DNA of 64,000 nucleotides from an uncultured Gammaproteobacteria bacterium (GCA_964443495.1 CAYUCS010000001.1:75542-139541); one strand, 5' to 3'; counted from the first letter of the stretch, positions 11,550-63,055 are shown. Numbers and translations are program-made. Notes: generated by a model not told the origin, from the letters alone.

Positions 11550-11571
11550 AAAAAAGGGGTGGGGCAACACT

Positions 11572-12077: not shown

Positions 12078-12206
12078 AACATAAAATTCATGTTAATTTG
12101 GAATATCGTTAAAATCAGTTATTTAGCCAATATTGGCTGTTAATGGCAATTTTACGTAAATTGTTCTGTACAATTCACTTCAACCACGCTATGTAAGGAG
12201 GAAAAC

Positions 12207-32410: not shown

Positions 32411-35400
32411 ATGCTTAATCCTATCAAAACGACCGACTTCGATGCGATCAAGCTCAAGCTCGCTTCTCCGGACGCGATCACGACTTGGTCCCATGGCGAA
32501 GTGACTCGGCCGGAAACGATCAACTACAGGACGCAGAAACCGGAAAAGGACGGCCTTTTCTGCGAGCGCATCTTCGGTCCGTCCAAAGACTGGGAGTGCT
32601 ATTGCGGACGTTACAAGAAGATCCGCTACAAGGGCATCGTTTGCGACAAGTGCGGCGTCGAAGTCACCCGCTCGATTGTCCGCCGCGAACGCATGGGCCA
32701 CATCACCCTGCAGGCGCCGGTGACCCATATCTGGTTTCTGCGCGGCATCTCCTCGAAGATCGGCTTGATTTTCGACCTATCGATGCAGGCCTTGGAGAAG
32801 GTGGTCTATTTCGCCAGCTTCATCATCATGGATGTGAATGAAGAGCTGAAGGAAGCGACGATCGAGCAGATCAAACAGGAATTCAAATCGAAGAAGAAGT
32901 CCTTGGAATCGGAGTTCACCAACCAGGTCAACGAGATCAAGAACCGCAAGGCCAAGCTGCTTTCGCAGGGCAAGACCGAATTGGAAATCGACCAGGAAAT
33001 CAGCGAGGAGATCGATTCCTTGACCAAGATCCGCGACGAGAAGATCGAAGCCTTGAACCAGGCTTTTGAGCAGGCCCAGAAGGAATTGAAGGAATTGAAG
33101 CCTTTCGCCATCATTTCGGAGAGCACTTATCAGAATCTGAGCTTGAAATATGGCCATATCTTCGAGGCTGGTATCGGCGCCGAAGCGATCCGTCGCCTGC
33201 TGGCCGGCATCGACTTGGCCGAATCCATCGAAAAATTGGAGCAGGAAATGCTCGAGGCCAACGAGACCAAGAAATCCCGCCTGGTCCGCCGCTTGAAGCT
33301 TTTGAAGAGCTTGCAAGCCAACGACCTGCGGCCGGAATGGATGGTCATGACCGTTATCCCGGTCATCCCGCCGGATCTGCGTCCGATGGTTCCGCTCGAC
33401 GGAGGCCGTTTCGCCACTTCCGACCTGAACGACCTCTATCGCCGCGTCATCAACCGCAACAACCGCTTGAAGCAATTGATCGACTTGTCCGCTCCGGAAG
33501 TCATCTGCCGCAACGAGAAGCGCATGTTGCAGGAAGCGGTCGATGCCTTGATCGATAATTCGGCCCGCCACGGCAAGACCGTGGTCGCCTCGACCGGACA
33601 GAAACGCATGCTCAAGTCTTTGGCCGATTCGCTCAAGGGCAAACAGGGCCGCTTCCGCCAGAACTTGCTCGGCAAGCGTATCGACTACTCCGGCCGTTCC
33701 GTTATCGTGGTCAACCCTAATCTGCATCTCGACCAGTGCGGCCTGCCGAAGACCATGGCTATCGAATTGTTCAAGCCGTTCATCATCAGCCAATTGATCA
33801 AGAAGGAGATAGTGCATAACGTCCGCAGCGCTTCCCGCTATATCGAAGCCGGTCATGACGAAGTCTGGGATATTTTGGAAAATATCATTACAGATGCCTA
33901 TGTCTTCCTCAACCGCGCCCCGACCCTGCATCGCCTGGGTATCCAGGCCTTCAAGCCGATCTTGATCGAGGGCAAGGCCTTGCAGATCCATCCGTTGGTC
34001 TGTACCGCTTTCAACGCCGACTTCGACGGTGACCAGATGGCCGTCCACGTGCCGCTGACCAAGGAGGCGGTGGCCGAGGCTCGCGACTTGATGCTCGCAT
34101 CGCATAACCTTTTGAAGCCGGCTACCGGCGATCCGATCGTCGCACCGGCCCAGGATATCGTTTGGGGCGCTTTCTACATGACCGTCATCAAGGGCGAAGA
34201 AAAGGAAGACAAGTTCCTCAAGGCCTTCTCGTCGCCGCTTGAGGCCGAGTTGGCATACAGCTTGGGCGAGCTGAAGATGCACGACCTGATCCGTGTCCGC
34301 GTCAACGGCGAGATGACCCGCACCACTATCGGCCGCCTGCTTTTCAACGACGTCCTGCCGGAGAAATTGCAGTTTGTCAACGCGGTGGTCGGCAAGAGCA
34401 AGCTTAAGAACTTGATCAAGGACTGCTTGCGCCATTACGGCGAGGAGCGCACCGTGCGCTTCGTCGATGAATTGAAGCATGTCACGTTAAAATATATCAC
34501 CAAATCCGGCCTGTCCTGGGGCATGGGCGACTTGCCTGACTTTACCGAACGCGAGCAGATGATCAACGAGGCCAATGACAAGGTTGACCGTATCCAGGAG
34601 CAATACGAGGAAGGCTTGTTGACCGATAGCGAACGCTACGGCAAAGTCATCGAGACCTGGACCGACGTCAAGGAGAAGATTACCGATCTCTGTAAGACCG
34701 GCTTGCCGGTCGACGGCCCGGTTTATTCCATGATCGAATCCGGCGCTCGCGGTTCATGGGCGCAGCTGACCCAGATCATCGGTATGAAAGGTTTGGTGAC
34801 CTCTCCTTCCGGCGACATCATCGAGTTGCCGGTCCGTGGTAACTTCAACAAAGGCTTCGGAGTCTTGGAATACTTCATTTCCACCCATGGTGTGCGTAAA
34901 GGTTTGTCCGATACCGCTTTGCGTACCGCCAACGCCGGTTATCTGACCCGCCGTTTGGTCGATGTTTCCCAGGATGTCGTCATCATGTCCGATGATTGCG
35001 GCGATACTAAGGGCATCATCTATACCAAGAAAGAGAGCGAAGAGTCCGGACACGACCTCTTGAAGCGCATTGTCGGCCGCTTTTTGGCTGCTGATCTCAA
35101 GAATGCTGACGGCAAAGTCTTGCTGCCAGCCGACACCTTGGTGACGGAAGCCGAGGCCGACGAACTCAAGGGAGAATTGATCGAGGAGGCCAATATCCGA
35201 TCAGTTTTGAGCTGCAAGCTGCATAAGGGCATCTGTGCCAAATGCTATGGCTACGATTTGGCCTATAACCAGCCGGTCAAGATGGGCACGGCTGTCGGCA
35301 TCATTGCCGCCCAGTCCATCGGCGAGCCTGGTACCCAGCTGACCATGAGAACCTTCCACACCGGCGGTGTGGCTGGTCTTGAAGATATCACCCAAGGTTT

Positions 35401-36337
35401 GCCTCGAGTCGAAGAAATTTTCGAGTGCCGCAGTCCGAAGCGCAAGGCCTTCATTTCTGATGTCGATGGCATCGTAAAGATCGAGACTGCCCAGCGTGAA
35501 ATCCAGGATGAGCACGGCAAGACCGTCTTGGTCTCGAATCCGCAGGTCAAGATCCTGAAGATCTACCACCGCGGCCACGAGTCGGAGAAGTACCTCTTCG
35601 CTGACGCGGCTGAGAACAAGAAGGAAGCCAAGAAGGTCGTGGCCAAAGTTCTGGTCAAGGAAGGCCAGACCGTACATAAGGGTGACGAGCTCTTCGCCGT
35701 CGGCGATGTTGTCATGACCGCCAAGCAGAGCGGCACCGTCAAGATCGAGGATAAGGCTGTCAAGGTGACTAGCGAAGTAGATAAGGTCAAAGAGTATATC
35801 ATCCCGAAGGGCTATAATGTCTGGGTCAAGAACGACCAGGAAGTGAAGCGCGGCGACCAGCTGACCGAGGGCAACATCGATTTGCAGCAGCTCTACCAGC
35901 TGCGCAACCGCATCGAGACCCAGAAGTATATCATCCGCGAAATCCAATCCGTCTACTCTTCACAGGGCCAGCCGTTGAATGATAAGCACGTCGAAATCAT
36001 CGCCCGCCAGATGTTCTCCCGCGTATTCGTCCAGGATGCCGGCGAGACTGAATTGCTGCCAGGCGAAGTGGTCGAGAAATCGATCTTCGATCGCGCCAAC
36101 GAGGCGACCGAGACCGAGGGCAAGGCTGCGGCCAAGGGCGACGAGCTCCTCTTGGGCATGACCAAGACTTCGCTTTCGACCGATAGCTTCCTGTCAGCCG
36201 CTTCGTTCCAGGAGACTGCCAAGGTCTTGATCGAAGCCGCGGTTACCGGTAAGATCGATAATCTCGAGGGCTTGAAAGAGAATGTCATTATCGGCCGCTT
36301 GATTCCGGCAGGTACCGGTTATAAGCACAAGCAATAG
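32411..36337 (+). CDS. rpoC: DNA-directed RNA polymerase subunit beta'
   Basis: 1308 aa. Zn-finger CxxC...CxxC near the N-terminus, NADFDGDQMAVH catalytic motif, C-terminal GTGYKHKQ. Confidence 0.97.
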   Translation: MLNPIKTTDFDAIKLKLASPDAITTWSHGEVTRPETINYRTQKPEKDGLFCERIFGPSKDWECYCGRYKKIRYKGIVCDKCGVEVTRSIVRRERMGHITLQAPVTHIWFLRGISSKIGLIFDLSMQALEKVVYFASFIIMDVNEELKEATIEQIKQEFKSKKKSLESEFTNQVNEIKNRKAKLLSQGKTELEIDQEISEEIDSLTKIRDEKIEALNQAFEQAQKELKELKPFAIISESTYQNLSLKYGHIFEAGIGAEAIRRLLAGIDLAESIEKLEQEMLEANETKKSRLVRRLKLLKSLQANDLRPEWMVMTVIPVIPPDLRPMVPLDGGRFATSDLNDLYRRVINRNNRLKQLIDLSAPEVICRNEKRMLQEAVDALIDNSARHGKTVVASTGQKRMLKSLADSLKGKQGRFRQNLLGKRIDYSGRSVIVVNPNLHLDQCGLPKTMAIELFKPFIISQLIKKEIVHNVRSASRYIEAGHDEVWDILENIITDAYVFLNRAPTLHRLGIQAFKPILIEGKALQIHPLVCTAFNADFDGDQMAVHVPLTKEAVAEARDLMLASHNLLKPATGDPIVAPAQDIVWGAFYMTVIKGEEKEDKFLKAFSSPLEAELAYSLGELKMHDLIRVRVNGEMTRTTIGRLLFNDVLPEKLQFVNAVVGKSKLKNLIKDCLRHYGEERTVRFVDELKHVTLKYITKSGLSWGMGDLPDFTEREQMINEANDKVDRIQEQYEEGLLTDSERYGKVIETWTDVKEKITDLCKTGLPVDGPVYSMIESGARGSWAQLTQIIGMKGLVTSPSGDIIELPVRGNFNKGFGVLEYFISTHGVRKGLSDTALRTANAGYLTRRLVDVSQDVVIMSDDCGDTKGIIYTKKESEESGHDLLKRIVGRFLAADLKNADGKVLLPADTLVTEAEADELKGELIEEANIRSVLSCKLHKGICAKCYGYDLAYNQPVKMGTAVGIIAAQSIGEPGTQLTMRTFHTGGVAGLEDITQGLPRVEEIFECRSPKRKAFISDVDGIVKIETAQREIQDEHGKTVLVSNPQVKILKIYHRGHESEKYLFADAAENKKEAKKVVAKVLVKEGQTVHKGDELFAVGDVVMTAKQSGTVKIEDKAVKVTSEVDKVKEYIIPKGYNVWVKNDQEVKRGDQLTEGNIDLQQLYQLRNRIETQKYIIREIQSVYSSQGQPLNDKHVEIIARQMFSRVFVQDAGETELLPGEVVEKSIFDRANEATETEGKAAAKGDELLLGMTKTSLSTDSFLSAASFQETAKVLIEAAVTGKIDNLEGLKENVIIGRLIPAGTGYKHKQ

Positions 36338-36364
36338 TTTTTTGCTCCTTAAGATACTAAATCA

Positions 36365-36397
36365 AAAGGCCCCCGATTCTTCGGGGGCCTTTTGATT
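36365..36397. terminator. Bidirectional rho-independent terminator (rpoC on +, TA pair on -)
   Basis: aaaa-GGCCCCCGA-ttct-TCGGGGGCC-ttttg. Confidence 0.75.
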
Positions 36398-36615
36398 TAT
36401 TGAGTATCGAGTGTCGAAAGCAGTTTTTTTAGCTTCGGGCTGGCACCTGCCTTTTCGAAATCGCCGAGAAACTTCGAGGCGTTGAGCATCTCGATCAGGA
36501 CCGGTTTGCCCAGGGCGGAGAAGTGGATGATGAGATTGCCGAACTCTTTGGTCTGGGCGATAGGATCGGCAGCCAGCTCCCACCAGGCGATATTTGATTC
36601 AGTATCGTATTGCAT
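36397..36615 (-). CDS. DUF2283-like small protein (putative antitoxin partner)
   Basis: Start at the internal ATG (MQYDTESNIAWWEL...). GKPVLIEMLNASKFL matches the DUF2283 pattern recalled as ...GIEILDASK. Confidence 0.55.
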   Translation of the reverse strand: MQYDTESNIAWWELAADPIAQTKEFGNLIIHFSALGKPVLIEMLNASKFLGDFEKAGASPKLKKLLSTLDTQ

Positions 36616-36623
36616 GTTTTTGG

Positions 36624-36842
36624 TCAGGCTTTTACCGGGAAAAAGGTGAGGATGCGGACGACCTCTGCCTGCTTCTGGTAGATTACTCGCCAATCATCTT
36701 TGGTGGCGGAAAAATATTTGCCCTTCTTGGCCACTTTGTCGGGAGACAGGACGACATCCTGGATCTGTTCTTTGATGACATAGACCTTATGTTTTTGCAG
36801 GATATCGAATTTTTGGTTAGCGTAAGCGGTGAAGTAAATCAT
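36624..36842 (-). CDS. DUF4258-like small protein (putative RelE-fold toxin partner)
   Basis: 72 aa. C-terminal WRVIYQKQAEVVRILTFFP resembles the DUF4258 C-terminal pattern. 8-nt gap to the DUF2283 gene. Start overlaps the upstream gene's stop by 4 nt. Confidence 0.45.
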   Translation of the reverse strand: MIYFTAYANQKFDILQKHKVYVIKEQIQDVVLSPDKVAKKGKYFSATKDDWRVIYQKQAEVVRILTFFPVKA

Positions 36843-37816
36843 GAGCCGTATTGCCTTACCCGCAGGCCGTTGGAGCCGTATTTTTTATTTATTTGGTCGG
36901 CGGTGTATATGCCGATCGCTTTTCCCGGCGTCCTTGCCTTATCGCCATGCGAGTCTGCAAATTGGCCGTTGCCCAGAGCTATAAAGACGTGGCCATATGA
37001 TTTGCCGCTATCGCCAGCCCTCCAACCCACAAGCGTTCCTTCAGGAAGTGAAGCCAATGAGGCCGAATCATATGTTCTCGTTTGGGAATTTTTGAAAATA
37101 TTGGCTGTTCCGCCGTCAATGGTTATATTCTTGCTGCTTTTTAGCACGTAGGCTGCAAAGCCAGAGCAGTCGAAACAGACAGTGCCATTAGGCCCTTGTC
37201 CGCCTTTGCCAAAGCAGTCGCCTGGCTTGATGGTTGAGTTAAGGCCGTAAGTTACATTGCCAACGGCTGAAGCGACAATATCTTTAATGGAGCCGCTCTG
37301 TAGTAATTTTGCGGAAGAGGCAATGAAGGGTGAATTGACATCCATCGCATCCTCGGTGTCCCCAAGGTTATACTTTTCAATCATTGTGATTTGAAGGGTG
37401 CTGCCGTTGGTTAAGTCGGGGTTTATTTGGTTAAGTACGGTATATGACGCCAGCATGAGAACTAGCCCTGTAATACTACCTGTTATCCATGCTTTAGCCT
37501 CAGAAATACGCGTAGCGTTGCCTGCCGAAGTCAGCCACAGCAGTCCTCCAAACATCATGGTAACAGTGGCAATGATTCCAACGACTGCAACTGCGTAGTT
37601 ATAAAGACTGGCGATATATTCCCAAATCCAGTTATTGCACATCTTGTCGCCGCATTGCGCCGGTTCGCTCAGGCGTTTCATACCCGGTATTTTTACCTGC
37701 AAGCTGTCGGTAGGATTCTTGATTGTTGGCATGCCGGAATCGGAGGCTATTGAAGCTTGGTTGGGTAAAAAAGTGAGGGCGAAAGAAAAAAGAAATATTG
37801 TTAATATTTTTTTCAT
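36839..37816 (-). CDS. Secreted TrbC/VirB2-like pilin-type N-module fused to an NlpC/P60 (DCSG) peptidoglycan hydrolase domain
   Basis: Signal peptide, two hydrophobic helices around a MMFGGLLWLTSAGN turn, C-terminal GDCFG...CFDCSGFAAYVL...GHVFIALG (Cys/His). Confidence 0.55.
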   Translation of the reverse strand: MKKILTIFLFSFALTFLPNQASIASDSGMPTIKNPTDSLQVKIPGMKRLSEPAQCGDKMCNNWIWEYIASLYNYAVAVVGIIATVTMMFGGLLWLTSAGNATRISEAKAWITGSITGLVLMLASYTVLNQINPDLTNGSTLQITMIEKYNLGDTEDAMDVNSPFIASSAKLLQSGSIKDIVASAVGNVTYGLNSTIKPGDCFGKGGQGPNGTVCFDCSGFAAYVLKSSKNITIDGGTANIFKNSQTRTYDSASLASLPEGTLVGWRAGDSGKSYGHVFIALGNGQFADSHGDKARTPGKAIGIYTADQINKKYGSNGLRVRQYGS

Positions 37817-37825
37817 GGCGGTATT

Positions 37826-38698
37826 TTAAGGTCCGTACCCAAGAACACTACGACAGTTGGGTTCTGAAATAAATTCATATTTTTGCCATCCTGATCCGCA
37901 AATTTCGAGACAAGATCGGTTTACGGATACTCTGGCGTATCTAAAGTCACCAGTTGAACTTTTACAGCAGGTTAGTCCAGTCGAATTAGCCAAATATTCA
38001 TCCCTGGTAACGCCGCACTTCTCCGCGATACTAGTGTTTTCTTCGCATTTTAGGCTGGAGATATTCCACCTACATCTCACAACGTTGTCGCAAAGGGCTT
38101 TTGTATTATAAAATGAGCAGTTGGCCTTGGTGCTTGCGGTTGCCAGACAGTCGGTTCCAAGCCAAATGCATTTCGCATCAGCCTCACAGTCTGTTTTGTC
38201 AAGCTGTTCACAGCCGTTTATTACTGATGTATCAGTGTATGTGCTGGTCGGAGCTTTTTTTATTTGTGTAATTTCTCTGGTTTTAAGGTTGACCAAATCA
38301 GTGTTTATGGTTGCTAATAAGATGTATGCGCCGAAAGCCAGGAGCAGGCCGGTTATCGAAGATGTGACGAAAGATTTGGCGGTAGCGATCTTGTCCGGGC
38401 TGCCAGCGGCGGTCAGCCAGAGCAGACCGCCGATCATCATGAATACCGTAGCCAGGATGCCGGCAACGCCGGAAAGGTATTTGAAAAAGGTTTTGATATA
38501 CTCTGCAATCGGACGGGTGTTCGTGACATTGGTGAAGTCGATTTGAGCCGGTTGCCCCGGAACCTGTACTTGCGGCGTGAACTTGACCTCGGTCGCTAAC
38601 GCAGTGCCACCCACGCCGATAAAAAAGAATAAGCCTGCCAAGAACATCAAGCCGTTTACCATGATGATTATTTTTTTGCTCATAGCCGTCAAGTTCAT
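37826..38698 (-). CDS. Secreted TrbC/VirB2-like pilin-type N-module fused to a Cys-rich (about 20 Cys) C-terminal domain
   Basis: N-terminal half is a paralog of the adjacent gene (AEYIKTFFKYLSGVAGILATVFMMIGGLLWLTAAGSP). C-terminal 150 aa is rich in C...C pairs. Confidence 0.5.
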   Translation of the reverse strand: MNLTAMSKKIIIMVNGLMFLAGLFFFIGVGGTALATEVKFTPQVQVPGQPAQIDFTNVTNTRPIAEYIKTFFKYLSGVAGILATVFMMIGGLLWLTAAGSPDKIATAKSFVTSSITGLLLAFGAYILLATINTDLVNLKTREITQIKKAPTSTYTDTSVINGCEQLDKTDCEADAKCIWLGTDCLATASTKANCSFYNTKALCDNVVRCRWNISSLKCEENTSIAEKCGVTRDEYLANSTGLTCCKSSTGDFRYARVSVNRSCLEICGSGWQKYEFISEPNCRSVLGYGP

Positions 38699-39387
38699 TT
38701 TTTGATTAAGTCATCGATTATCCGCTGCCAGATATCAAGCGGCAGGTCGCCATCCACCTTGGTGCCGTTGATCAGCCAAGTCGGGGTGCCTTTGACGCCG
38801 ATCTTTTCGGCATACTCCAGGTTGGCCAGGATCTTGTATTGCTCGGCTTGGCTGGCCAGGCACTTGGTGAAGCCAAAGGTCTTGACGCCGACTTGTTCCG
38901 CTAATTTTACGATGTCAGAGGTGGTTGCGATTTTCCCTTGGTTCTGGAAAAGTTTGTCGTGCATCGCCCAGAATTTGCCTTGCTGTCCGGCGCACCTAGC
39001 AGCCAAAGACAGCTCTAAAGATTGTTCGCTGATGTTGGGATAGTCTCGGAAGACGACTTTGATGTCGTCCGGGTATTTGGCGCCGAGCGAGCGGATTTTG
39101 GAGAAGCTTGATTTTGAATTGGGGCAGGAGAAGTCGCTGAACTCCACGATGGTTATCTTGGGGGAGCTGGTGCCGAACCAGTAGTTGTCCTTGCCTTCAG
39201 TGTCAGCGTAGTTGCGGCCCGAGGCCACGGTTGAAAGCTGCTGGCTGGCGTAATTCTTGGCGGCGAAAAATGCGGCCGTAAAGATGGTTATGACCAGCGC
39301 AAGAAAAATCCACAATAAGATGGCCCACCAGCGCAACGGCCAGGGTTTTTTAATGATGGCTTGTGATTGGGTGTCAGGTAATGCCAT
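38695..39387 (-). CDS. DsbA-like thioredoxin-fold protein, membrane-anchored, with a CPNS (CxxS) motif
   Basis: N-terminal TM, ITIVEFSDFSCPNSK verified codon by codon, GTPTWLING near the C-terminus (DsbA-like cis-Pro region). Confidence 0.65.
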   Translation of the reverse strand: MALPDTQSQAIIKKPWPLRWWAILLWIFLALVITIFTAAFFAAKNYASQQLSTVASGRNYADTEGKDNYWFGTSSPKITIVEFSDFSCPNSKSSFSKIRSLGAKYPDDIKVVFRDYPNISEQSLELSLAARCAGQQGKFWAMHDKLFQNQGKIATTSDIVKLAEQVGVKTFGFTKCLASQAEQYKILANLEYAEKIGVKGTPTWLINGTKVDGDLPLDIWQRIIDDLIKK

Positions 39388-39641
39388 TTGGATAAAAAGT
39401 GTTTTTATTATACCATATTAATCATGAGCAAACAAAATCATGATGCGGCCGAAAACCGGCTCGCACGTCGCGCCGCTCGGCGCATGAAAAGGGGAAGGCC
39501 GAAAATGCGTGTCGCCGGATCTTCGGTCAAGGCGCTGCAAAAATTGATCATAAAGCGTTCGAAGTAATGGGTTTGACTATTTTCGTAATAGGGGTAAAAT
39601 AATCTAGTAATTATATTTGCTTAAATTAGCCTAAAAATAAT

Positions 39642-44496: not shown

Positions 44497-44518
44497 TTTT
44501 TTAAAAAGCTCTTGGAGC
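44497..44518 (+). terminator. Hairpin AAAGCTC-ttg-GAGCTTT plus ttgtt after rsmA
   Basis: 7-bp stem and a short T-run. An extended -10 (TGtTATAAT) follows. Confidence 0.4.
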
Positions 44519-44562
44519 TTTTTGTTGCCTTGTGTTATAATAAGTGCATAAATATTTCCCCC

Positions 44563-45246
44563 ATGCTTGAGGACTCTAAGGAGGTCAACAATCAAGAGTC
44601 TGGGCCGCAAGAGCCGGCGCAGGCAGCTCGTCCAAGTATCAATAAGAACCAGAAATTATTTCTGGCTGTTTTGCTATTGATCGGTTTATCAATGATCGGC
44701 CTTTGGGCGGCACAGCTGCGACAGGGGATTTACCAGCCTTTCCGTCCCAAAAATAGCGGTACTTCCGAAAATGCCCCAGCTGTCGACAATCAGCTTTCCG
44801 AGCAGGCCGACACGGACAAGGACGGACTTTTGGACGTGGATGAAACCGGGGCCTATGGAACGTCGCCATATCTTGAAGATACTGACGGTGACAATATTAA
44901 CGACGGCGCCGAGGTTAGGGCTGGCACTGACCCTAATTGCCCTGAAGGTAATAAGTGCGGCGCCCCCACGACCAGCGGCGCGGAAAATGGCACCACCTCC
45001 GCCGCCATCATCAGCGATGCGGCCACGTCTTCCCCAGCTGCAAAAACCGCTACGCCCGCATCCCAGACTGATTCATCTGCCGGCGGCCTTTCGGAGCAGG
45101 ACATGAAAAACATGCTTGAAGGCAAGATGAGCGCTAGCGCTTTGCGCCAGGCTTTGCTCAAATCAGGGGCCGACCCCAAATTGCTTGACCAGCTGAGCGA
45201 CGAGGACCTGGTGAGCAGCTATAAGAAGTCTCTCAATAGCCAATAA
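44563..45246 (+). CDS. Membrane-anchored protein with Asp-rich DxDxDG calcium-binding-type repeats
   Basis: ATG at 44563 after a TGnTATAAT promoter element. TM LFLAVLLLIGLSMIGLW. DTDKDGLLDVDETG and DTDGDNINDGAE. Confidence 0.45.
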   Translation: MLEDSKEVNNQESGPQEPAQAARPSINKNQKLFLAVLLLIGLSMIGLWAAQLRQGIYQPFRPKNSGTSENAPAVDNQLSEQADTDKDGLLDVDETGAYGTSPYLEDTDGDNINDGAEVRAGTDPNCPEGNKCGAPTTSGAENGTTSAAIISDAATSSPAAKTATPASQTDSSAGGLSEQDMKNMLEGKMSASALRQALLKSGADPKLLDQLSDEDLVSSYKKSLNSQ

Positions 45247-45269
45247 CGGTAAATTGATAAGCAAAATAT

Positions 45270-48200
45270 ATGTACAAATGGTTTAAGGCAAAATTTATAA
45301 AAGCATCAATTTCGGTGTTGGCCGTCGTTTTAATTTCCGGATCTCTTGGCCTGATGTTTGGAGTCGGTAGAGCCGATGCCGCGGGCGAGTCTTTTCCGGC
45401 AAGCATGCCTTGGGTTACTCCGGTTTCCAATCCTTTTGATATTAAAACTTCCGATCAGTCGGCTCTAAGTTCTTACGCGCAACTGTACAAAAAGCAAGAG
45501 GAGCAGAAGCAGACTTCTATTTGGGGCACTTTGAAGGATTACGCGAGCAAGCTCAAGGATTGGGCTCGGGAAGATTTGTGGAACGAGGTGGTCGTGGCTG
45601 GCGGCTCGAAAGCGCTTGGCTCCGCAGTGCGAAACGCTTTGAATACCATTGCAATGGACACCGCCACCTGGCTCGGATCCGGCGGCAATGGCCAAAAACC
45701 ATTATTTTATACCGAAGGATGGGGCGCCTATCTGACCAATGTAGCCGACAACGCAGCTGGCACTTTTGTCGAGCAGCTTGGCAAACAGAACGGTTATGCC
45801 AAGTTCAATCTCTGTAAGCCGAACTTCGCTCTGCAAATGAAGATCGGCTTGGGACTGGTGCAGTCGGTCAAACCATCCGCGCCAGCCTGTACCTTTTCTA
45901 AATTGGTCAGCAACTGGGAGAACGAACTTTCCAGCGAGGATTTCATGGACAAGATACAGTCGTCCTTCGATCCTACAAACAATGATTTCGGAGTAGCGTT
46001 TTCTTTGCAGACCGGCATGTTCCAGCAGATCAATGAAGATAAATATTCGAAATTACTGACCCGCCAAGAGGGCCAGGGGTATATCAATCAAGGAACAAGC
46101 AAGATCGGCGAATCGCTTGGTTTGCCAGCCAAATCAGAAGTCGAGCGCAAGAATTACCTTGATGCCGGCATGAAGGCCAATGCGATCACGCAGTATACCG
46201 GCTATGCGCTAGTAGATGCTGCAAATGTCTTTATTAACCAATTGGCCATAACCGCCTTCAACGAATTGATGAAAAAGCTGGGCGGCAAGAACTACTCTTC
46301 CGGCTACGGCAACTGGAACAGCCTTATCAGCAACTTCAAGGCCGGTCCGGATGCCACTATCGGCGGAGGTATCGCCGCCACGAAAAATCAGCTTCGCAAG
46401 ATCGGAGAACCTCAGTTCAATGTCCGAGGCGATTACAACATCTTGTCAGAATTAAGCTCCTGTCCCAAGCCGGACAAGGCCGGTCCGACCAATTGCGTCA
46501 TCGATGATAAATTCAAGCAGGGAATCCTGGACAAGAAAACCGTGGCCGAAGCCATCAAGCTCGGCTATCTTAACGGGGAGAAGATTGTCGGCTTCTCGAG
46601 CGATGGCGTCGAGCCGCGCTATACGGACGCTTATCCATATCGATCTCTGATAATCTTGCGCAAATTCCGCATCTTGCCCGTCGGCTGGGAAATTGCCGCC
46701 CAGTATATCCGTGACAATCTCGATCCGACAAAGCCTAATGGTGTAGGACCGAAATCCCTGGGTGATTTAGTGGCGTGCTTCGATCAGAATGACGAATATC
46801 CTGGATACTATGCTGCCTGGTGCCAAGGCCTGGTGGATCCGAATTGGCTTTTGAAATCACCATTGAATTATTGCCGTCGCGAGGGACCAGGACCGGAAAA
46901 CATCTCCGATGATGAAGCGACTCTGGTCAGGGGAGACAAGTATTGCGCCGACGAGCAGTCTTGCATCAAGGAAAAGGCGGATGGCTCTTGCGAATATTAC
47001 GGCTATTGCACCGAAGAGCGCCGCAAGTGGAAATTCAATTCCGAATCCTGCGAACCATTGTATAACACCTGCCAAACTTTCAAGAGTGAGAGCGGAGCCT
47101 CGGTTTCTTATTTGAAAAATACCCTTGATTATAGCGGATGCTCCGTGGACAATGCCGGCTGTACCGATTACTGTACAGCTTACAACTTCGCAACCGGCAA
47201 GTATGCCTGTACCGCCACTTCTACCGGCAATAAGGTCTTTTTGGATCGCGATGCCGGCAGCTGCGATCAGAAGGCCGAAGGTTGTACCTCTTTCATCAGG
47301 ACGAAAGAGGGCACGGGCGCTAACCTGCTGTTGAATTCCAGCTTTGAAGACGATTTGGCCACTGGCGCTTGGGCCGCCCTGGGTGCGACCACCTCCGATG
47401 CTTTTTCCGGCTTCAGCAGCTTACAGCTCACGCCTGGCGTATTGACAAAGAATTTTTCTGCCGGCCCGGGGTTAACTTATGTCGGCGGCGAGTATAATAT
47501 AGAAGGCGAGTCGTATACGATTTCCCTGTACTCCAAAAACTGTCCGGCTGGCAGCACGGTTTCTTTGATGGACGGCGCCAATACCGAGTCTGTTTCGATC
47601 GAGTCGGCCGGCACGTGGACATTGAATTCACTTTCCCATGTCTTCATGAGTTCCGGTCCAGCCTTTGATTTCCAATTCAACACCCCTGGCGGCTCGAGCT
47701 GCTTGATTGATGCGGTAAAGATCGAAAAGAGCATCGGCGCTACGCCGTATAGCGAGTACGGTACGACCGGCTTAGTACACGAGAAATACGCACCGAGCTA
47801 CCTTGGCTGCGATGGCGTGGCTGATCCGGCGGAGTGCAAAGATTTTGCCAGAAGCTGCAAATTCGAGGAGGTCGGTTGCGAGCTGTATACTCCGGTCAGC
47901 GGGGATATGCCCGTTCCAGGCAAAGTCAAGCCAGCAGACTACTGCGTGGCCGAATGCGTCGGCTTTGATACCTATCTGCAGTCTCAGACCACTTTCGATT
48001 CATTGCGGCCGGATTATTTCATTCCGAAGACGGCCAAGGCCTGCAGTGCTGAAACCAATGGCTGCGACCAGTTTACTAATCTGGACAAACTTGGGAGCGG
48101 TGCCGAGGCGACCGAATATTATTCATATCTGCGTCAGTGCATTACTTCCGGCGGCACGCAGTTTTATACTTGGGAAGGCTCGAACGAGACTGGCTTCCAG

Positions 48201-53540: not shown

Positions 53541-53541
53541 G

Positions 53542-54141
53542 ATGATTGAAATCAACCAACAACAAGCTGCGCTGGATTTGCGTCTGGCGCAAGCGGCCGA
53601 ACGCAATGGCATCGAGTCCGAAGAGCCAGTTGTTGAGCAGCCGGAAATGTCGTTGCGCCAACGGCTAGCGGCAAAAAGAAAGGCAGAAAAGTATAAGTAC
53701 GCTGCGGATGAGAGGCTTGATCGGGCAAGGATTAGGACAGAAGAACGATTTATAAAGGCTTCCTCAGCCAGAGCGTTACGGGCAGCATGGCTGAGCGAAG
53801 GGACGATAGTCGGTTTTTTGTTCGGATTGGCTTATATTAATCTCCATGTATTCCTAAGGTTAGTCTTCGGTCCGGATATGTTTTGCAAGCTAGGTGAGGA
53901 GTGGTCGTTAGGCAAAGCTGGGTCAGTCGGAAAGACGGCAAGCATAGGTGCTTTTTGGGCAGAGGTCCTGCAACTAATCTTCTTTGACTTATTGATATTT
54001 GGTGCAGTCGCTTATTCCATTTTTTGGCTTTATTTGCTGGCGGAGTTGATAAATATACCTTCGTGGGAGACGGTTAAGGAAGTGGGTATACTTTTCTTTG
54101 AGCCTTTATGGGAATTGATAAAAACTAACATGACGTCATGA
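53542..54141 (+). CDS. Membrane protein (hypothetical), first gene after the giant ORF
   Basis: ATG 2 nt after the giant gene's stop. Polar N-terminal half and 3-4 TM in the C-terminal half. Stop overlaps the next start (ATGA). Confidence 0.5.
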   Translation: MIEINQQQAALDLRLAQAAERNGIESEEPVVEQPEMSLRQRLAAKRKAEKYKYAADERLDRARIRTEERFIKASSARALRAAWLSEGTIVGFLFGLAYINLHVFLRLVFGPDMFCKLGEEWSLGKAGSVGKTASIGAFWAEVLQLIFFDLLIFGAVAYSIFWLYLLAELINIPSWETVKEVGILFFEPLWELIKTNMTS

Positions 54142-56783: not shown

Positions 56784-56793
56784 AAGCAAAACT

Positions 56794-57927: not shown

Positions 57928-57934
57928 AACAATT

Positions 57935-59392: not shown

Positions 59393-59395
59393 GAT

Positions 59396-59830
59396 ATGCA
59401 GCAATTCACAGTACCGCAGTTTATCGATGTCGAAGACAAGATTATCGGGCCGATTACCACGCGCCAATTCGTCATAATTTTGGCTTCATTCATGATAATC
59501 GCCCTGTGCTACCGCCTTTTTGATTTCTCAGCCTTTATCTTTTTTTCGGTCATCATTTTCGCGGTAATGGTGGTATTGGCATTCGTCAAGATTAACGGAC
59601 GGCCGTTTCATTTTTTTCTACTGAACATCATCCAGACCTTCAAGCGCCCCAAGACCAGGATCTGGCTCAAGGAAGATGATGTCGAGTCGTCGGTCGAGGC
59701 GGAGGATCCTTCACTGAAAAGGTTTGAGCCGGTACCGGTCAAGGAATATACTTTGGGCGGCTCAAGGCTTGATGAGATGTCGTTGATCGTCGATACCCAA
59801 GGTGCATATCGCGGAGAAATCAGAAAATAA
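59396..59830 (+). CDS. PrgI/VirB3-like small membrane protein
   Basis: MQQFTVPQFIDVEDKIIGPITTRQF followed by two TM helices. This matches the PrgI-family N-terminus as recalled from memory. Confidence 0.45.
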   Translation: MQQFTVPQFIDVEDKIIGPITTRQFVIILASFMIIALCYRLFDFSAFIFFSVIIFAVMVVLAFVKINGRPFHFFLLNIIQTFKRPKTRIWLKEDDVESSVEAEDPSLKRFEPVPVKEYTLGGSRLDEMSLIVDTQGAYRGEIRK

Positions 59831-59837
59831 AAACATT

Positions 59838-60515
59838 ATGGAAAATAAGCTAGCCGCCGGAAAAATAAACAAGTCAACACAGCATTATCTGGACATCGCG
59901 GAAATCCGCGATGATACGGTGATAATGAAAGACAGCACCATGCGTTCGGTGCTGTTGGTTTCGAGCATTAATTTCTCACTCAAGAGCGAGGACGAGCAGA
60001 ATGCCGTCATCTCGTCTTATGTCAGCTTCCTGAATAATATCGATTTTCCAGTCCAGATCGTAATCCAGTCGCGCGAACTCGATATCGAGAAATACCTGAA
60101 CAGCCTGAAACAGAAAGAAAAAGGGCAGACTAATGAACTTTTGAAAATCCAGATCAATGACTACATACAGTATATCGGCGAATTGATCTCGATCGGCAAG
60201 ATTATGAGCAAGCGTTTTTACGTGGTCGTCTCCTTCAATCCGATGTCCGATAAGCAGAAAGGTTTCTTCAGCTCGATGAAAGAAGCGTTCAAGCCGGTCA
60301 ACCTGGTCAAGATGAAGAGAGAGACTTTCTTGCGCCGCCGCCACGAGCTTACTCGCCGAGTCGATAACGTCATGAGCGGCTTGGCCTCGATCGGCCTGAA
60401 ATCAGTGGAATTAGACACGCAAAGCTTGATCGAGCTTTATTACAATACATACAATCCGGTCGTTTCCGCACATGAAAAGCTGGTTGATATTAAAAAATTG
60501 CGCGTAACCGAATAA
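59838..60515 (+). CDS. VirB4/TrbE-like N-terminal domain protein (separate ORF)
   Basis: ATG at 59838 (MENKLAAGKINKSTQHYLDIAEIRDDTVIMKDSTMRSVLLVSSINF...). Precedes the ATPase ORF and is in a different frame. Confidence 0.5.
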   Translation: MENKLAAGKINKSTQHYLDIAEIRDDTVIMKDSTMRSVLLVSSINFSLKSEDEQNAVISSYVSFLNNIDFPVQIVIQSRELDIEKYLNSLKQKEKGQTNELLKIQINDYIQYIGELISIGKIMSKRFYVVVSFNPMSDKQKGFFSSMKEAFKPVNLVKMKRETFLRRRHELTRRVDNVMSGLASIGLKSVELDTQSLIELYYNTYNPVVSAHEKLVDIKKLRVTE

Positions 60516-60517
60516 AC

Positions 60518-62437
60518 ATGTTCAATTTAAACGATGTAAAAAACCAAAATACCCAGACAACAGGCCAGGCAGCAGCGCAAAAGCCGGTCATGCCGGTCGT
60601 GGACCCCAAGGAAACCAAGGAGGCTCGCGACATTATCGAGCAGGAAAAGGCCTTCCGACGCGGCGTCGTTTCGATCCGTGACCTTATCGCCCCGGCCAGT
60701 TTCCAGATCAATTCAGATTACTTGCGCTTGGGCGAGAAATTCGTCCGTACCTTGTTCGTCATCAATTATCCGCGTTATATCAGTGTGGGCTGGTTCTCGC
60801 CGATTATCAACCTGAATTCGACTTTCGATATCGCCATGTTTTTCTACCCGGTAGCTGCCGGAGTGGTCTTGAAGCAGCTGAAGAACAAGGTGGGCGCCTT
60901 GGAGGCTCAGATCATCGCCGACGCGGAAAAGGGAGCTGCTCGCGATCCGTTGCGCGAGACGGCTTTGAGAGATATTGAGGCCTTGCGCGACGCCTTGACT
61001 CAGGGAACCGAGAAATTCTTCCAGTTCGCTTTGTATGTTTCACTGTATGCCGATTCCAAAGAAGAGCTGGACAACCTTTCCGATGAGATCGAGAATATTT
61101 TCGGATCGCGCCTAGTCTATTCCCGCCGAGTCTTCTTCCAAGCGGAACAAGGCTTTAATTCGACTATGCCGCTGGGTAACGATGAGCTGTTCATCTGCTT
61201 CAATATGAACTCTTCTCCGGTCGCTTCATCATTTCCGTTCATGTCTTCGGAATTAACGACAGACAACGGCGTGCTGTACGGCATTAACAGGCACAATAAC
61301 AGCTTGATCCTATTTGACCGCTTCAGCTTGCAGAACGCCAATTCAGTGGTGTTTGCCACCTCCGGTTCTGGAAAATCCTATACCGTCAAATTAGAAATTT
61401 TACGCAGCTTAATGATCGGTACGGAGGTTATCATTATCGATCCGGAATACGAGTACAAGCATTTGTCCGACGCGGTCGGAGGCACATACATCAACATCTC
61501 GTTGTCGAGCGAAAATAAAATCAATCCGTTCGATTTGCCGCGCTCGATCGGCGGCGATGCAAGGGCTGAGGACATCATCCGCAGCGCTGTCATTACGGTC
61601 AAGGGCCTTTTGAAGATCATGCTCGGCCAGTTGACCAACGAAGAGGATTCGATCATTGATCGCGCCCTTTTGGAAACCTATGCCAAGAAAGACATTACGC
61701 CAGACGCCGACCTGTCAAAGGTCGAAGCGCCGATCCTCCAGGATTTCCAGGACATTCTCGAGGGCATGGAAGGTTCAGCCGACCTTGTGGTCCGCTTGAA
61801 GAAATATACCGAAGGCACGTTCGCCGGGCTGTTGAACAATCCGACCAACGTCAAGATGGATAACCAGCTGATTTGCTTTTCCGTCCGCGATTTGGAGGAT
61901 GAGTTGCGCCCGATGTCCATCTATACCATCATCAATTATATCTGGAATATCGTCCGTTCAGAAACCAAGCGACGCATCCTGGTGATCGATGAAGCCTGGT
62001 GGATGATGCAGCATGAAGATTCGGCGAAGTTCATTTTTGCCTTGGTCAAGCGCTGCCGCAAGTACTACCTTGGCGTCACGACGATCACCCAGGATGTCAA
62101 CGACTTTTTGCGTTCGCCATACGGCCAGGCCATCGTGACCAACTCTTCATTGCAATTGCTCCTGAAGCAGTCGCCCGCCTCGATCGAGATGATCCAAAAG
62201 ACCTTTAGCCTGACGGAAGGCGAGAAGTACCTGCTGATGGAGTGCGGCGTGGGCGAGGGCATCTTCTTTGCCGGGCCTAGGCACGCGGCCATAAAAGTGG
62301 TAGCTTCATACACCGAGGACCAGCTGATTACCACCGACCCGAAGCAGCTTTTGGAAATAGAGGAGGCGAAGCGTGAATTCGCAGCTAGCGTCGATACGGC
62401 GCAGGGATCTGCCCAGGACATGAATATCGACTTATAA
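60518..62437 (+). CDS. VirB4/TrbE/CagE-like type IV secretion ATPase (C-terminal ATPase portion)
   Basis: Walker A VVFATSGSGKSYT, Walker B-like ILVIDEAWWMM, overall VirB4 architecture. Confidence 0.8.
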   Translation: MFNLNDVKNQNTQTTGQAAAQKPVMPVVDPKETKEARDIIEQEKAFRRGVVSIRDLIAPASFQINSDYLRLGEKFVRTLFVINYPRYISVGWFSPIINLNSTFDIAMFFYPVAAGVVLKQLKNKVGALEAQIIADAEKGAARDPLRETALRDIEALRDALTQGTEKFFQFALYVSLYADSKEELDNLSDEIENIFGSRLVYSRRVFFQAEQGFNSTMPLGNDELFICFNMNSSPVASSFPFMSSELTTDNGVLYGINRHNNSLILFDRFSLQNANSVVFATSGSGKSYTVKLEILRSLMIGTEVIIIDPEYEYKHLSDAVGGTYINISLSSENKINPFDLPRSIGGDARAEDIIRSAVITVKGLLKIMLGQLTNEEDSIIDRALLETYAKKDITPDADLSKVEAPILQDFQDILEGMEGSADLVVRLKKYTEGTFAGLLNNPTNVKMDNQLICFSVRDLEDELRPMSIYTIINYIWNIVRSETKRRILVIDEAWWMMQHEDSAKFIFALVKRCRKYYLGVTTITQDVNDFLRSPYGQAIVTNSSLQLLLKQSPASIEMIQKTFSLTEGEKYLLMECGVGEGIFFAGPRHAAIKVVASYTEDQLITTDPKQLLEIEEAKREFAASVDTAQGSAQDMNIDL

Positions 62438-62464
62438 TAATCGCGCTTTGGCGCAATCAAACAT

Positions 62465-63055
62465 ATGGATCGTCGTTTTGTAGGATTTTTTTTCATCGGT
62501 TTAGGAGTTATCATTCTGATTTTGATAATCTATTTCCTGTTTTTCTTCAAATTCAATAAGCCGCAAGACGTACCGAAGCAGCAGGGGGCGACTTCTACCC
62601 CGGCGGTCAAGACCGTTGTCGAGCCGCCGAAAATCCTTGAGGTCAAGCCGGTGACCAAGGAAGAGCTCGACCAGGAGGGGGTCAAGAGGTTGGCGGCCAG
62701 CTTTGCCGAACGGTTCGGCAGCTATTCCAGCCATTCGAATTTCCAGAACATGGAAGATTTGAAGCTGTTCATGACCGACAAGATGAAAACTTGGTCCGAA
62801 GACTTCGTCAAGACCCAAGCTTTGAAACAAGCGGGCAACACAGAGTATTATGGCATTACGACCAAGGCAGTCACCAAGAAAATGGTTGATTTCGACGAGT
62901 CGAAGGGTACCGCCAAGGTTTTGATCCAGACACAGCGTCGCGAAACCGTCGGTTCGGCTGGCAATCCTGTCAGTTTCGGCCAGTCGATCGAAGTCAGCCT
63001 GCTAAAACAAGGGGGCACATGGAAGGTCGACCAGGCCTATTGGAAGGACAGATAG
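62465..63055 (+). CDS. Membrane-anchored protein (VirB8-like size and topology; speculative)
   Basis: N-terminal TM (FFFIGLGVIILILIIYFLFFF) followed by a ~150-aa soluble domain. Confidence 0.4.
   Translation: MDRRFVGFFFIGLGVIILILIIYFLFFFKFNKPQDVPKQQGATSTPAVKTVVEPPKILEVKPVTKEELDQEGVKRLAASFAERFGSYSSHSNFQNMEDLKLFMTDKMKTWSEDFVKTQALKQAGNTEYYGITTKAVTKKMVDFDESKGTAKVLIQTQRRETVGSAGNPVSFGQSIEVSLLKQGGTWKVDQAYWKDR

Follow-up and report, generated by a model that had tools for sequence, protein, structure and literature searches.

A putative type IV secretion accessory operon with two modular VirB2-like pilins and exchangeable C-terminal domains in a patescibacterium

Organization of the operon

The window, that is, the whole stretch of 64 kb analysed here, comes from a patescibacterium close to Ca. 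Falkowbacteria. Five consecutive minus-strand ORFs are called between 36397 and 39387, and the five-gene operon that had been proposed there is real. It is located between rpoC and leuS, and this chromosomal synteny is kept around the operon in several genomes. The features are listed below, where L001, L009 and L010 are relatives.

38695..39387, minus strand: DsbA-like thioredoxin-fold protein (230 aa), matching Pfam Thioredoxin_4 (9e-25, 88.2 bits) and DSBA (6.8e-18, 65.6 bits)
37826..38698, minus strand: modular pilin 1 (290 aa), whose signal peptide and VirB2-like two-helix module are followed by a variable C-terminal domain with 14 Cys
38279..38536, minus strand: pilin module of pilin 1, covering residues 55-140, with INTDLVNLK at its end and 73-80% identity in syntenic relatives
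37829..38278, minus strand: variable Cys-rich C-terminal domain of pilin 1, a replaceable cassette whose counterparts in L001, L009 and L010 are 18-21% identical to it
36839..37816, minus strand: modular pilin 2 (325 aa), with a signal peptide, a Cys55/Cys60 pair, a VirB2-like two-helix module, a linker and an NlpC/P60 domain
37397..37654, minus strand: pilin module of pilin 2, covering residues 55-140, with INPDLTN at its end
36842..37222, minus strand: NlpC/P60 catalytic domain (about residues 199-325), with the codons of catalytic Cys217 at 37166-37168 and His276 at 36989-36991
36624..36842, minus strand: 72-aa cytoplasmic protein, whose start overlaps the pilin 2 stop (ATGA)
36397..36615, minus strand: DUF2283 protein (72 aa), matching PF10049 (7.8e-6, 26.4 bits, cut-off 23)
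36358..36399, no strand: bidirectional intrinsic terminator, a hairpin that separates the operon from the convergent rpoC

The preliminary description counted four start/stop overlaps. Two of them are ATGA overlaps (38698/38695 and 36842/36839), but the other two junctions are gaps of 9 and 8 nt. It should be noted that in the public annotation pilin 1 (P0093, 285 aa) begins at the second ATG (38683), which would leave an 11-nt gap and no overlap. The strong bidirectional terminator described at the end of the operon is present as a hairpin with a perfect 19-bp stem, with a folding energy of -33.2 kcal/mol and z = -8.67, and none of 200 shuffled sequences folds as well. This hairpin was missed by a simple scanner, presumably because its A/T tracts pair into the stem.

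Of the two small genes at the end, the first had been taken for a DUF4258 gene. This assignment is not borne out, as the protein has no match to PF14076 or any other family in Pfam at E <= 1, nor any match in NCBIfam, PHROGs or PDB, and the NCBI name of its ortholog is 'hypothetical protein'. The DUF2283 assignment of the second stands, its match being above the cut-off and its ortholog being named 'DUF2283 domain-containing protein' by NCBI.

Two VirB2-like pilin modules

The two middle proteins do share an N-terminal module, as had been claimed, which extends over 86 residues with 47% identity, and these two modules are the only ones of their kind within the 64-kb window. Both match PF18895 (T4SS_pilin) above the Pfam cut-off of 26.6, with 33.6 bits (4.1e-8, residues 62-128) for pilin 1 and 31.5 bits (1.9e-7) for pilin 2. 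The suggested TrbC/VirB2 relationship is thus upheld at the level of a related family, and the modules do not score as generic signal anchors, although PF04956 itself is not reached. Relatives with the same module match PF18895 and PF04956 TrbC (P0104, 1.2e-42; P0116, 1.9e-28), and the TrbC matches of the pilin 1 orthologs are sub-threshold.

Hydropathy indicates the same topology for both proteins, a signal peptide followed by two hydrophobic helices. In the AF2 models the helices are located at residues 57-91 and 96-126 of pilin 1, whose hairpin is of moderate confidence, and at 63-96 and 101-131 of pilin 2, and they are joined by the short basic loop SAGNATRISEAK. The mature pilins are not small hairpin-only proteins, since C-terminal domains of 150 and 185 residues come after the hairpin. 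Solved conjugative pilins have no sequence match to the module, and the best Foldseek match of the hairpin, the archaeal conjugation pilin 8dfu, is not significant (E = 0.9), so that the fold is not discriminating. A generic hairpin unmatched by solved pilins would also suit housekeeping envelope proteins, in which the two-helix module is a mere membrane anchor, the NlpC/P60 protein an autolysin for the cell's own growth and division, and the Cys-rich protein a generic surface protein, with no tie to type IV secretion. We consider this explanation unlikely, and the PF18895 and TrbC profile matches speak against it.

The C-terminal domain of pilin 2

The DCSG-type NlpC/P60 domain proposed for pilin 2 is recovered by Pfam (NLPC_P60, 30.3 bits, 4.5e-7, cut-off 23), and its catalytic residues withstand alignment, with D216-C217-S218 and H276 being invariant in 23 homologs. 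The third polar catalytic residue is Asp288 (D/E/Q in homologs) or His290. Pilin 2 also aligns with 7cfl, 6b8c and CwlO at their catalytic FDCSGF and GHV motifs. In the PDB, 7cfl is matched by phmmer at 2e-5 and is also the top Foldseek match of the domain (4e-6, probability 1.00), together with 8tw1, 3h41 and MepS. The AF2 model of pilin 2 has a mean pLDDT of 79.4, with the domain after the helices mostly above 90, and an ortholog with 76% identity carries the name 'C40 family peptidase'. Based on the profile, the alignment and the model, the C-terminal domain of pilin 2 is predicted to be an intact NlpC/P60 peptidoglycan endopeptidase.

The domain also weakly matches phage tail-lysin PHROGs (2.7e-6), as might be expected if a holin-like two-TM segment had been fused to an endolysin in a remnant of a prophage or lysis cassette. 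However, this match covers the catalytic domain only, the other four proteins have no PHROG match, no phage genes are found nearby, and the rpoC-leuS synteny is conserved in several genomes; such an origin is extremely improbable.

The Cys-rich domain of pilin 1 and the DsbA-like protein

The C-terminal domain of pilin 1 had been credited with roughly 20 cysteines, while 14 are counted, at residues 163-282, all of them after helix 2. AF2 models this domain below pLDDT 50 with no assignable fold; no homologs were found for it by k-mer search, and weak similarity is seen to P0226, P0118 and P0206. The GC content of the cassette is 0.43, compared with 0.50-0.55 in its flanks.

The first gene of the operon had been proposed as the oxidoreductase for this domain. 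It does encode a protein of the DsbA type, with a thioredoxin fold with helical insertion according to the Thioredoxin_4 and DSBA profiles, an extracytoplasmic location and an N-terminal membrane anchor (residues 23-41, by hydropathy). However, the CXXC of DsbA is replaced by CPNS, and this monothiol site (C88-P-N-S) is not that of a classical DsbA oxidant. The protein also has a Cys132/Cys176 pair and a cis-Pro-like T-P-T loop, both of them conserved. A monothiol CPNS cannot hold the classical DsbA active-site disulfide, so that, as far as the sequence goes, this protein more probably works as an isomerase or a mixed-disulfide chaperone. The homologs in L001, L009 and L010 (78-95% identity) keep CPNS, and CXXC takes its place in more distant associated homologs (L004, L007 and L008).

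The DsbA-like gene adjoins pilin genes in L004, L006, L012, L013, L014, L016 and L018. Among 80 loci, a pilin-module ORF comes directly after the DsbA-like gene at all four with CXXS, compared with a pilin ORF nearby at 2 of the 76 with CXXC (Fisher p = 9.5e-6). Therefore, CXXS DsbA-like genes track pilin adjacency. The three complete pilin ORFs after CXXS loci encode 32-36 Cys, and the fourth is cut by the contig end.

Exchange of the C-terminal domains

In four syntenic relatives (L001, L009 and L010 among them), the flanks are 75-99% identical and both C-terminal domains are replaced. The replacement begins just past an IN(P/T)DL motif, the conserved end of helix 2. For example, the window and L009 share 95% identity in the DsbA-like protein and 99% in the DUF2283 protein, versus 21% in the C-terminal domain of pilin 1 and 18% in that of pilin 2. 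The blastn homology in pilin 1 stops at 38283 or 38258, and that of pilin 2 to L009 and L010 is limited to 37747..37374. The second slot contains NlpC/P60 in the window and L001, VanY in L010 (6e-12) and an unassigned domain in L009, and across this exchange the pilin modules, the DsbA-like gene and the downstream genes are conserved. The strongest feature of the locus is that both C-terminal domains are exchanged like cassettes between close relatives, which could not be seen from the one sequence. Such rapid replacement of a catalytic domain between near-identical strains would be unexpected for a housekeeping autolysin.

In polymorphic toxins such as CdiA-CT, Rhs and LXG, unrelated C-terminal domains are attached, past a sharp junction motif, to an N-terminal part that is conserved. 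Likewise, the loci here have a conserved N-terminal region followed by unrelated C-terminal domains in otherwise near-identical surroundings, swapped at a fixed junction motif. The cargo set (NlpC/P60, VanY/M15, M23, SLT and lysozyme) mirrors cell-wall-targeting effectors, and a G-D-T/S motif after the module is nearly invariant in the NlpC/P60 subgroup. The pilin module could then be a trafficking domain, and the C-terminal parts antibacterial effectors that are cleaved and delivered to hosts or competitors, with the small downstream genes conferring protection. However, conservation of the 36624..36842 gene in L001, L009 and L010 is 75-88% irrespective of the upstream cargo, which means that this gene is not a co-varying immunity gene. 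The DUF2283 gene is likewise conserved (81-99%), so that the pair spans 75-99% identity across three cargo types, and both products lack signal peptides and hydrophobic segments; consequently, they are not cognate immunity proteins for extracytoplasmic enzymes. Unlike in polymorphic toxins, the N-terminal region is a pilin module, the cargo consists of cell-wall enzymes or Cys-rich domains, and the window contains no orphan cassettes. An effector system of this kind is therefore quite improbable.

A search with the module profile retrieved 32,473 cluster representatives at E <= 1e-3. Among the closest relatives, 94% of 122 single-module proteins have a C-terminal extension of 80 aa or more, which is usually Cys-rich; these 122 top matches contain 12 Cys at the median, and 90% of them have an even number. 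A cell-wall hydrolase domain was recognised in about 23 of the 140 closest relatives (about 16%), and the types comprise SLT, VanY, M15, 3D, NlpC/P60, lysozyme and glucosaminidase. Thus the fusion of a pilin to a hydrolase, which had been regarded as unusual, is recurrent within Patescibacteria and involves many hydrolase types.

Link to type IV secretion

A type IV secretion system (T4SS) cluster core is found in the window at 59396..62437.

59396-59830, plus strand: PrgI/VirB3-like (Pfam PrgI, 2.9e-9)
59802-60515, plus strand: TraC-like
60518-62437, plus strand: VirB4-like ATPase (Pfam P-loop_TraG, 2.7e-30 / AAA_10)

The operon lies outside this cluster, on the strand opposite to virB4 and about 21 kb away from it, and in L004 the DsbA-pilin/NlpC genes have no T4SS genes within 10 kb; both arrangements would fit housekeeping envelope proteins. 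However, the same gene types occur repeatedly just downstream of VirB4. VirB4 neighbourhoods had been named as the place to look for homologs, and pilin-hydrolase homologs do follow VirB4 at a distance of two or three genes in L003, L005 and L006, those in L003 and L005 being pilin-NlpC/P60 homologs two genes after it. The order in L006 is VirB4-x-x-pilin+SLT-Thioredoxin_4-pilin, and the window's T4SS cluster is orthologous to the L006 cluster, with 73% identity in VirB4. In other Patescibacteria, homologous pilin-hydrolase, thioredoxin-fold and pilin genes are found directly downstream of VirB4, and the giant-protein/T4SS neighbourhood beside leuS-DsbA-pilins is conserved, which also argues against a housekeeping role. 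We regard the PrgI/TraC-like/VirB4 cluster of the window as the putative partner machinery of the pilins. The cluster has no hydrolase or pilin gene of its own, so a VirB1-like role supplied in cis by pilin 2 is plausible. VirB1 homologs are mostly missing in Patescibacteria, where VirB2-like pilin arrays are widespread, and these arrays are essential in Southlakia epibionticum (PMC10633639; PMC12102498).

Comparison with known systems

The S. epibionticum arrays (SEML1_0006-0019) resemble the present pair in having PF18895/VirB2-like modules, tandem divergent paralogs and a chromosomal location, and in an association, here putative, with an MPF-FATA-like PrgI/VirB4 system without a relaxase (PMC10633639; PMC12102498). 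In contrast, each pilin here bears a large C-terminal domain (an enzyme or a Cys-rich head) that is exchanged from strain to strain, and the pair is encoded away from the VirB4 cluster, in one transcript with a monothiol DsbA-like gene. Those two papers mention none of these traits, and no description of modular T4SS pilins with exchangeable cargo was found in the literature searched.

In the F-like T4SS, TrbB (a CXXC disulfide isomerase) and TraF (no CXXC) set a precedent for T4SS-encoded thioredoxin-fold proteins with Cys-rich clients, namely TraN, TraU and TraH (PMC11315126). As here, a thioredoxin-fold protein is encoded beside Cys-rich T4SS components, and a variant without the full CXXC is tolerated and linked to pilus assembly. 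However, the protein in the window is DsbA-like (Thioredoxin_4, with helical insert and TM anchor), and its CPNS site retains the nucleophilic Cys. In addition, the organism is monoderm, and the clients would be the pilin heads themselves.

NlpC/P60 hydrolases are known from Gram-positive T4SSs, such as CwlT (ICEBs1), Orf14 (Tn916) and those of the CD419 type. PrgK (pCF10) and TraG (pIP501) are further hydrolases of such conjugative systems (PMC12102498). They share with pilin 2 membrane tethering, papain-like (NlpC/P60 or CHAP) domains and a VirB1 role in monoderms, the last being putative for pilin 2, and the pilin 2 homologs occupy the corresponding position after VirB4. The differences are that pilin 2 is anchored by a VirB2-like pilin hairpin instead of a single TM segment or lipobox, and that it has one catalytic domain and no SLT domain. 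In close relatives, peptidases of unrelated families take the place of this catalytic domain.

The fusion of a pilin module to a displayed functional module is also known from modular type IV pilins and two-domain adhesins (Streptococcus sanguinis PilB/PilC, FimH). An incorporation module and a functional module are common to both cases, incorporation being predicted here, whereas the pilin superfamilies are unrelated (T4P or chaperone-usher versus the T4SS VirB2-like hairpin).

Proposed function

Taken together, we consider it moderately probable that the locus is a T4SS accessory operon, in which two modular VirB2-like pilins display exchangeable cargo and a dedicated thioredoxin-fold helper serves them. 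After Sec export, the hairpin would insert N-out/C-out with its R/K-bearing loop inside, and the C-terminal domain would therefore face outward. The module could dock the protein into or beside the T4SS, where it would be a subunit of the pilus or a component close to the membrane. The NlpC/P60 head would cut peptidoglycan stem peptides, in the producer's own wall (a VirB1/CwlT-type role in cis), in the host wall at the contact site, or in both, and the Cys-rich head may be a variable host-contact surface. The membrane-anchored CPNS protein would shuffle or chaperone the head disulfides via mixed disulfides rather than act as a classical oxidant, and cargo swapping may reflect diversifying selection linked to host envelopes. 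Counted against this explanation, a head of 150-190 aa on each subunit may be sterically hard to accommodate in a VirB2-type filament; no short 'major' pilin is found in the window. The separation of the operon from virB4 and the missing sequence match to solved conjugative pilins also weigh against it.

A more specific version of the accessory-operon reading is possible, though rather doubtful at present. VirB2-like pilins may serve as a display scaffold, a T4SS fibre or membrane platform, for swappable peptidoglycan-cutting enzymes and hypervariable disulfide-rich binding heads, with the heads being folded by the monothiol DsbA-like isomerase and swapped per host envelope by recombination at IN(P/T)DL. 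If this is true, the scaffold would be a 'lytic pilus', with which the epibiotic bacterium opens the wall of its host. Pilins that carry different heads in close relatives hint at how ultrasmall host-dependent bacteria may engage host cells.

Organization of the operon

The operon consists of five minus-strand genes, with leuS located upstream on the opposite strand:

39387..38695, minus strand: gene 1, DsbA-like protein, 230 aa (ORF)
38698..37826, minus strand: gene 2, pilin 1, 290 aa (ORF)
37816..36839, minus strand: gene 3, pilin 2, 325 aa (ORF)
36842..36624, minus strand: gene 4, 72-aa protein (ORF)
36615..36397, minus strand: gene 5, DUF2283 protein, 72 aa (internal ATG of a 98-aa ORF)

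The genes are joined by two ATGA overlaps, one 9-nt gap and one 8-nt gap. The public call for pilin 1 (P0093, 285 aa) begins at the second ATG, by which the first overlap would become an 11-nt gap. The operon is closed by a perfect 19-bp hairpin at 36358-36399 (-33.2 kcal/mol, z = -8.7 against shuffled sequences), which is common to the convergent rpoC gene (32411..36337). The operon proposed in the preliminary description is real, and most of its family calls are right. DUF2283 in gene 5 is recovered by Pfam, while the DUF4258 label is unsupported for gene 4, which has no match in Pfam, NCBIfam, PHROGs or PDB and whose ortholog is named 'hypothetical protein' at NCBI. Divergent from the operon, at 39424-39567 on the plus strand, there is a small ORF of very basic composition (MSKQNHDAAENRLARRAARRMKRGRPK...), and a 50-aa gene is called in the same position in three relatives (loci L001, L002 and L010).

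The pilin modules and their C-terminal domains

Both pilins match PF18895 (T4SS_pilin) in Pfam, with 33.6 bits for gene 2 and 31.5 bits for gene 3 compared with a gathering score of 26.6. Their modules share 47% identity across 86 residues, and no others occur in the 64-kb window. The modules had been described as TrbC/VirB2-like; this holds at the level of PF18895, whereas PF04956 (TrbC/VirB2) itself is not reached by the window proteins. In pilin 1 orthologs the PF04956 matches are sub-threshold, and relatives with the same module match PF18895 and PF04956 over the same residues (P0104, 1.2e-42; P0116, 1.9e-28). Judged from these profiles, such dual matches bridge the window module to the VirB2/TrbC superfamily. 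Comparison with PDB gave no sequence match to any pilin, either for the module profile or for a relative with tandem modules. Foldseek with the hairpin was non-discriminating, the top match of the pilin 1 model being the Aeropyrum conjugation pilin 8dfu with E = 0.9. Four related proteins, P0104 (1147 aa), P0106, P0114 and P0116, are predicted polyproteins with 6-11 tandem pilin modules, and they may be real 'poly-pilins' or gene calls fused across pilin arrays.

Each pilin sequence contains a signal peptide and two hydrophobic helices with an R/K-bearing loop. The Cys-rich domain of pilin 1 contains 14 Cys rather than the roughly 20 counted previously, every one in residues 163-282, past helix 2. 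Based on these features together, we infer that the C-terminal domains are placed outside the cytoplasm. The Cys-rich domain alone found zero homologs in the k-mer search, and its AF2 model has pLDDT < 50.

For pilin 2, NLPC_P60 is above threshold in Pfam. In its AF2 model (mean pLDDT 79.4), helices 63-96 and 101-131 make up a long hairpin, which a short linker of low confidence joins to the C-terminal domain. Most of this domain scores above pLDDT 90, and its best Foldseek PDB matches belong to the NlpC/P60 enzymes: 7cfl (the Acd24020 autolysin), 3h41 and MepS. The catalytic residues, whose possible absence had been a concern, are in place: across 23 aligned homologs D216-C217-S218 and H276 never vary, position 288 is mostly D, E or Q, which fits the third polar residue, and phmmer against PDB matches FDCSGF and GHV to the catalytic motifs in known enzymes. 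A G-D-(T/S) motif, nearly invariant in the NlpC/P60-headed subgroup, is located 15-20 residues past the pilin module (pilin 2 positions 152-153, window ~37358-37363, minus strand, from the alignment), and may be either structural or a site of processing.

Distribution of the architecture

A two-module profile retrieved 32,473 cluster representatives with a cut-off of E <= 1e-3, and 6,169 when the cut-off was E <= 1e-10; a locus search with the two-sequence module alignment gave chance pattern matches only. PF18895 was found in 139 of the best 140 new matches, and 122 of the 140 are single-module proteins. Among these 122, the C-terminal extension reaches 80 aa or more in 94% (median 162 aa), and the extensions contain a median of 12 Cys, with an even count in 90% of the proteins, a signature that points to disulfide-bonded extracytoplasmic domains. 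A recognised peptidoglycan hydrolase domain is carried by about 23 of the 140 (SLT 9, VanY 3, SLT_3 3, M15 2, 3D 2, NlpC/P60 2, phage lysozyme 1 and glucosaminidase 1), and the search seeded with pilin 2 added M23 and M15_4 fusions. Therefore, the fusion of a pilin with a hydrolase, previously regarded as unusual, is a recurrent Patescibacterial design and no singular oddity.

No description of such fusions between pilin and wall hydrolase was found in the searched literature, where the terms PF18895 and T4SS_pilin led to essentially one relevant paper (PMC12102498). This recent survey handles PF18895 proteins simply as VirB2-like pilins, and it inferred that pilus biogenesis is independent of VirB1, since VirB1 homologs are mostly missing (PMC12102498). 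The fusion is thus a widespread, so far undescribed variant of known Patescibacterial T4SS pilins.

The thioredoxin-fold partner

Gene 1 matches Thioredoxin_4/DSBA in Pfam. Its product combines an N-terminal membrane anchor with a thioredoxin fold; Cys132 and Cys176 are a conserved pair, a T-P-T loop is present, and the active site reads CPNS, a monothiol motif. Among 80 genome loci retrieved with this protein, six have a pilin-module ORF no more than 6 kb away. A CXXS active site (CPNS, CPFS, CPYS and CPYS) occurs in four of the 80 (L013, L014, L016 and L018, from Falkowbacteria, Uhrbacteria and other Patescibacteria), and all four are directly followed by a pilin-module ORF, while CXXS is found in none of the 74 loci without one. 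The association is significant by Fisher's exact test (p = 9.5e-6 for the 80 loci; p = 0.005 for the approximately 18 taken as Patescibacterial from their record titles). The pilin ORFs past the CXXS genes contain 32-36 Cys in the three complete cases, and that of L014 ends with the contig.

The oxidising disulfide of DsbA is out of reach for a monothiol site. It is established that CXXS variants of protein disulfide isomerase attack and reshuffle substrate disulfides, or form mixed disulfides; by analogy, the gene 1 product can presumably do the same. Like the window operon, F-like T4SSs encode thioredoxin-fold proteins with Cys-rich components and so provide a precedent: TrbB, a CXXC isomerase, and TraF, which has no CXXC and is required for pilus extension, are encoded with the Cys-rich TraN, TraU and TraH (PMC11315126). 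In the relative L006, a Thioredoxin_4 protein (11479-12201) is located between two pilin genes of the VirB4 cluster; it has no C-x-x-[CS] motif at all, and in lacking CXXC recalls F-plasmid TraF.

Exchange of C-terminal domains

Four syntenic relatives contain the same operon (L001/L002, L009 and L010). In these, the DsbA-like protein is 78-95% identical to that of the window, with CPNS in all, the 72-aa protein 75-88%, the DUF2283 protein 81-99% and the pilin modules approximately 66-80%. However, the C-terminal domain of pilin 1 is only 18-21% identical, that is, unrelated, and occurs in three types with 14, 12 and 22 Cys. For pilin 2, the window and L001 have an NlpC/P60 domain in this place, and L010 has VanY/M15 (6e-12); the domain in L009 is left unassigned, since it has no Pfam match, but its H..D and HxH motifs recall LAS/M15 metallopeptidases. 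The blastn homology ends at 38283 or 38258, right after INTDLVNLK, is back over the pilin 2 module only (37747..37374, ending at INPDL), and restarts precisely where the 72-aa gene begins (36843 or 36836). The pilin 1 cassette (37829-38278, minus strand) has a GC content of 0.43 compared with 0.50-0.55 in its flanks, which fits a separate evolutionary origin.

Exchanged C-terminal domains might also be expected of a polymorphic effector system, a reading that we consider quite improbable. No alternative, silent or orphan C-domain cassettes are present in the window. The 72-aa and DUF2283 proteins, tried as cognate immunity proteins, were rejected because they show neither co-variation with the cargo nor export signals; more probably, this small gene pair is unrelated and shares the transcript.

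Neighbourhood and synteny

The window also contains a T4SS neighbourhood:

44512-63055, plus strand: T4SS neighbourhood, starting with a TSP3-repeat protein
45270-53540, plus strand: 2756-aa CBM_4_9 giant protein
between the giant protein and PrgI, plus strand: proteins of 881, 410 and 485 aa, no family match
59396-59830, plus strand: PrgI/VirB3-like protein, followed by a TraC-like protein
60518-62437, plus strand: VirB4-type ATPase, followed by a 196-aa protein
63057-63779, plus strand: ComF-like gene (double zinc ribbon and phosphoribosyltransferase domains), directly 3' of the T4SS cluster

Neither a pilin module nor a hydrolase is found in this cluster. One rival reading, rather unlikely in our view, is an ordinary anchored autolysin without a T4SS role. 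Homologs do adjoin VirB4 clusters, as had been suggested for checking, in L003, L005 and L006. In L003 and L005, pilin-module/NlpC/P60 homologs are located two genes past VirB4, adjoining dnaA. The order in L006, whose VirB4 shares 73% identity with that of the window, is giant protein-...-PrgI-TraC-like-VirB4-x-x-pilin+SLT-Thioredoxin_4-pilin. A DsbA-like gene and pilin-module genes come after leuS in L007, L008, L011 and L012, as in the window, and L012 has the exact layout leuS-DsbA-Cys-rich pilin-pilin+NlpC/P60, despite a DsbA identity of only 41%. The nearest named relative is a Candidatus Falkowbacteria MAG (76% identity for pilin 2). A prophage lysis remnant, the third alternative, was rejected on the PHROGs search and the synteny, and is hardly credible.

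The window T4SS gene order is kept in L006, and the giant protein, which may be a T4SS-associated surface adhesin, is near leuS also in L008 and L011. In L007 (3709-12315) and L008 (7053-13234), a CXXC DsbA-like gene is followed downstream by an odd arrangement, in which pilin-module genes, some of them with M15_4 or VanY heads, are interleaved with the genes for the four subunits of pyruvate:ferredoxin oxidoreductase.

Perspective

We favour, with modest confidence, a T4SS accessory operon of modular VirB2-like pilins. The pilins would be incorporated into the pilus or the machine with their heads facing outward, a peptidoglycan endopeptidase on pilin 2 and a variable disulfide-rich domain on pilin 1. 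The dedicated monothiol DsbA-like protein would assist these heads, which would be exchanged where the pilin module ends, through recombination. The endopeptidase may open the wall in cis, in the manner of VirB1/CwlT, and/or act on the host wall.

The role of the Patescibacterial T4SS has been called 'completely unknown' (PMC11665869), although the sole genetically tractable Patescibacterium cannot do without its T4SS and pilin array. The operon and its relatives suggest an answer, in which the pilin-like proteins themselves often carry the wall-cutting activity as a fusion, and they suggest the variable heads as prime candidates for host recognition. The modular-pilin idea is thereby extended from type IV pili to T4SS pilins, and several targets are opened, such as which peptidoglycan chemotypes of the host the hydrolase is specific for, which clients the CXXS DsbA-like protein has, and how cargo swapping relates to host range. 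The finding bears directly on what the essential Patescibacterial T4SS does.
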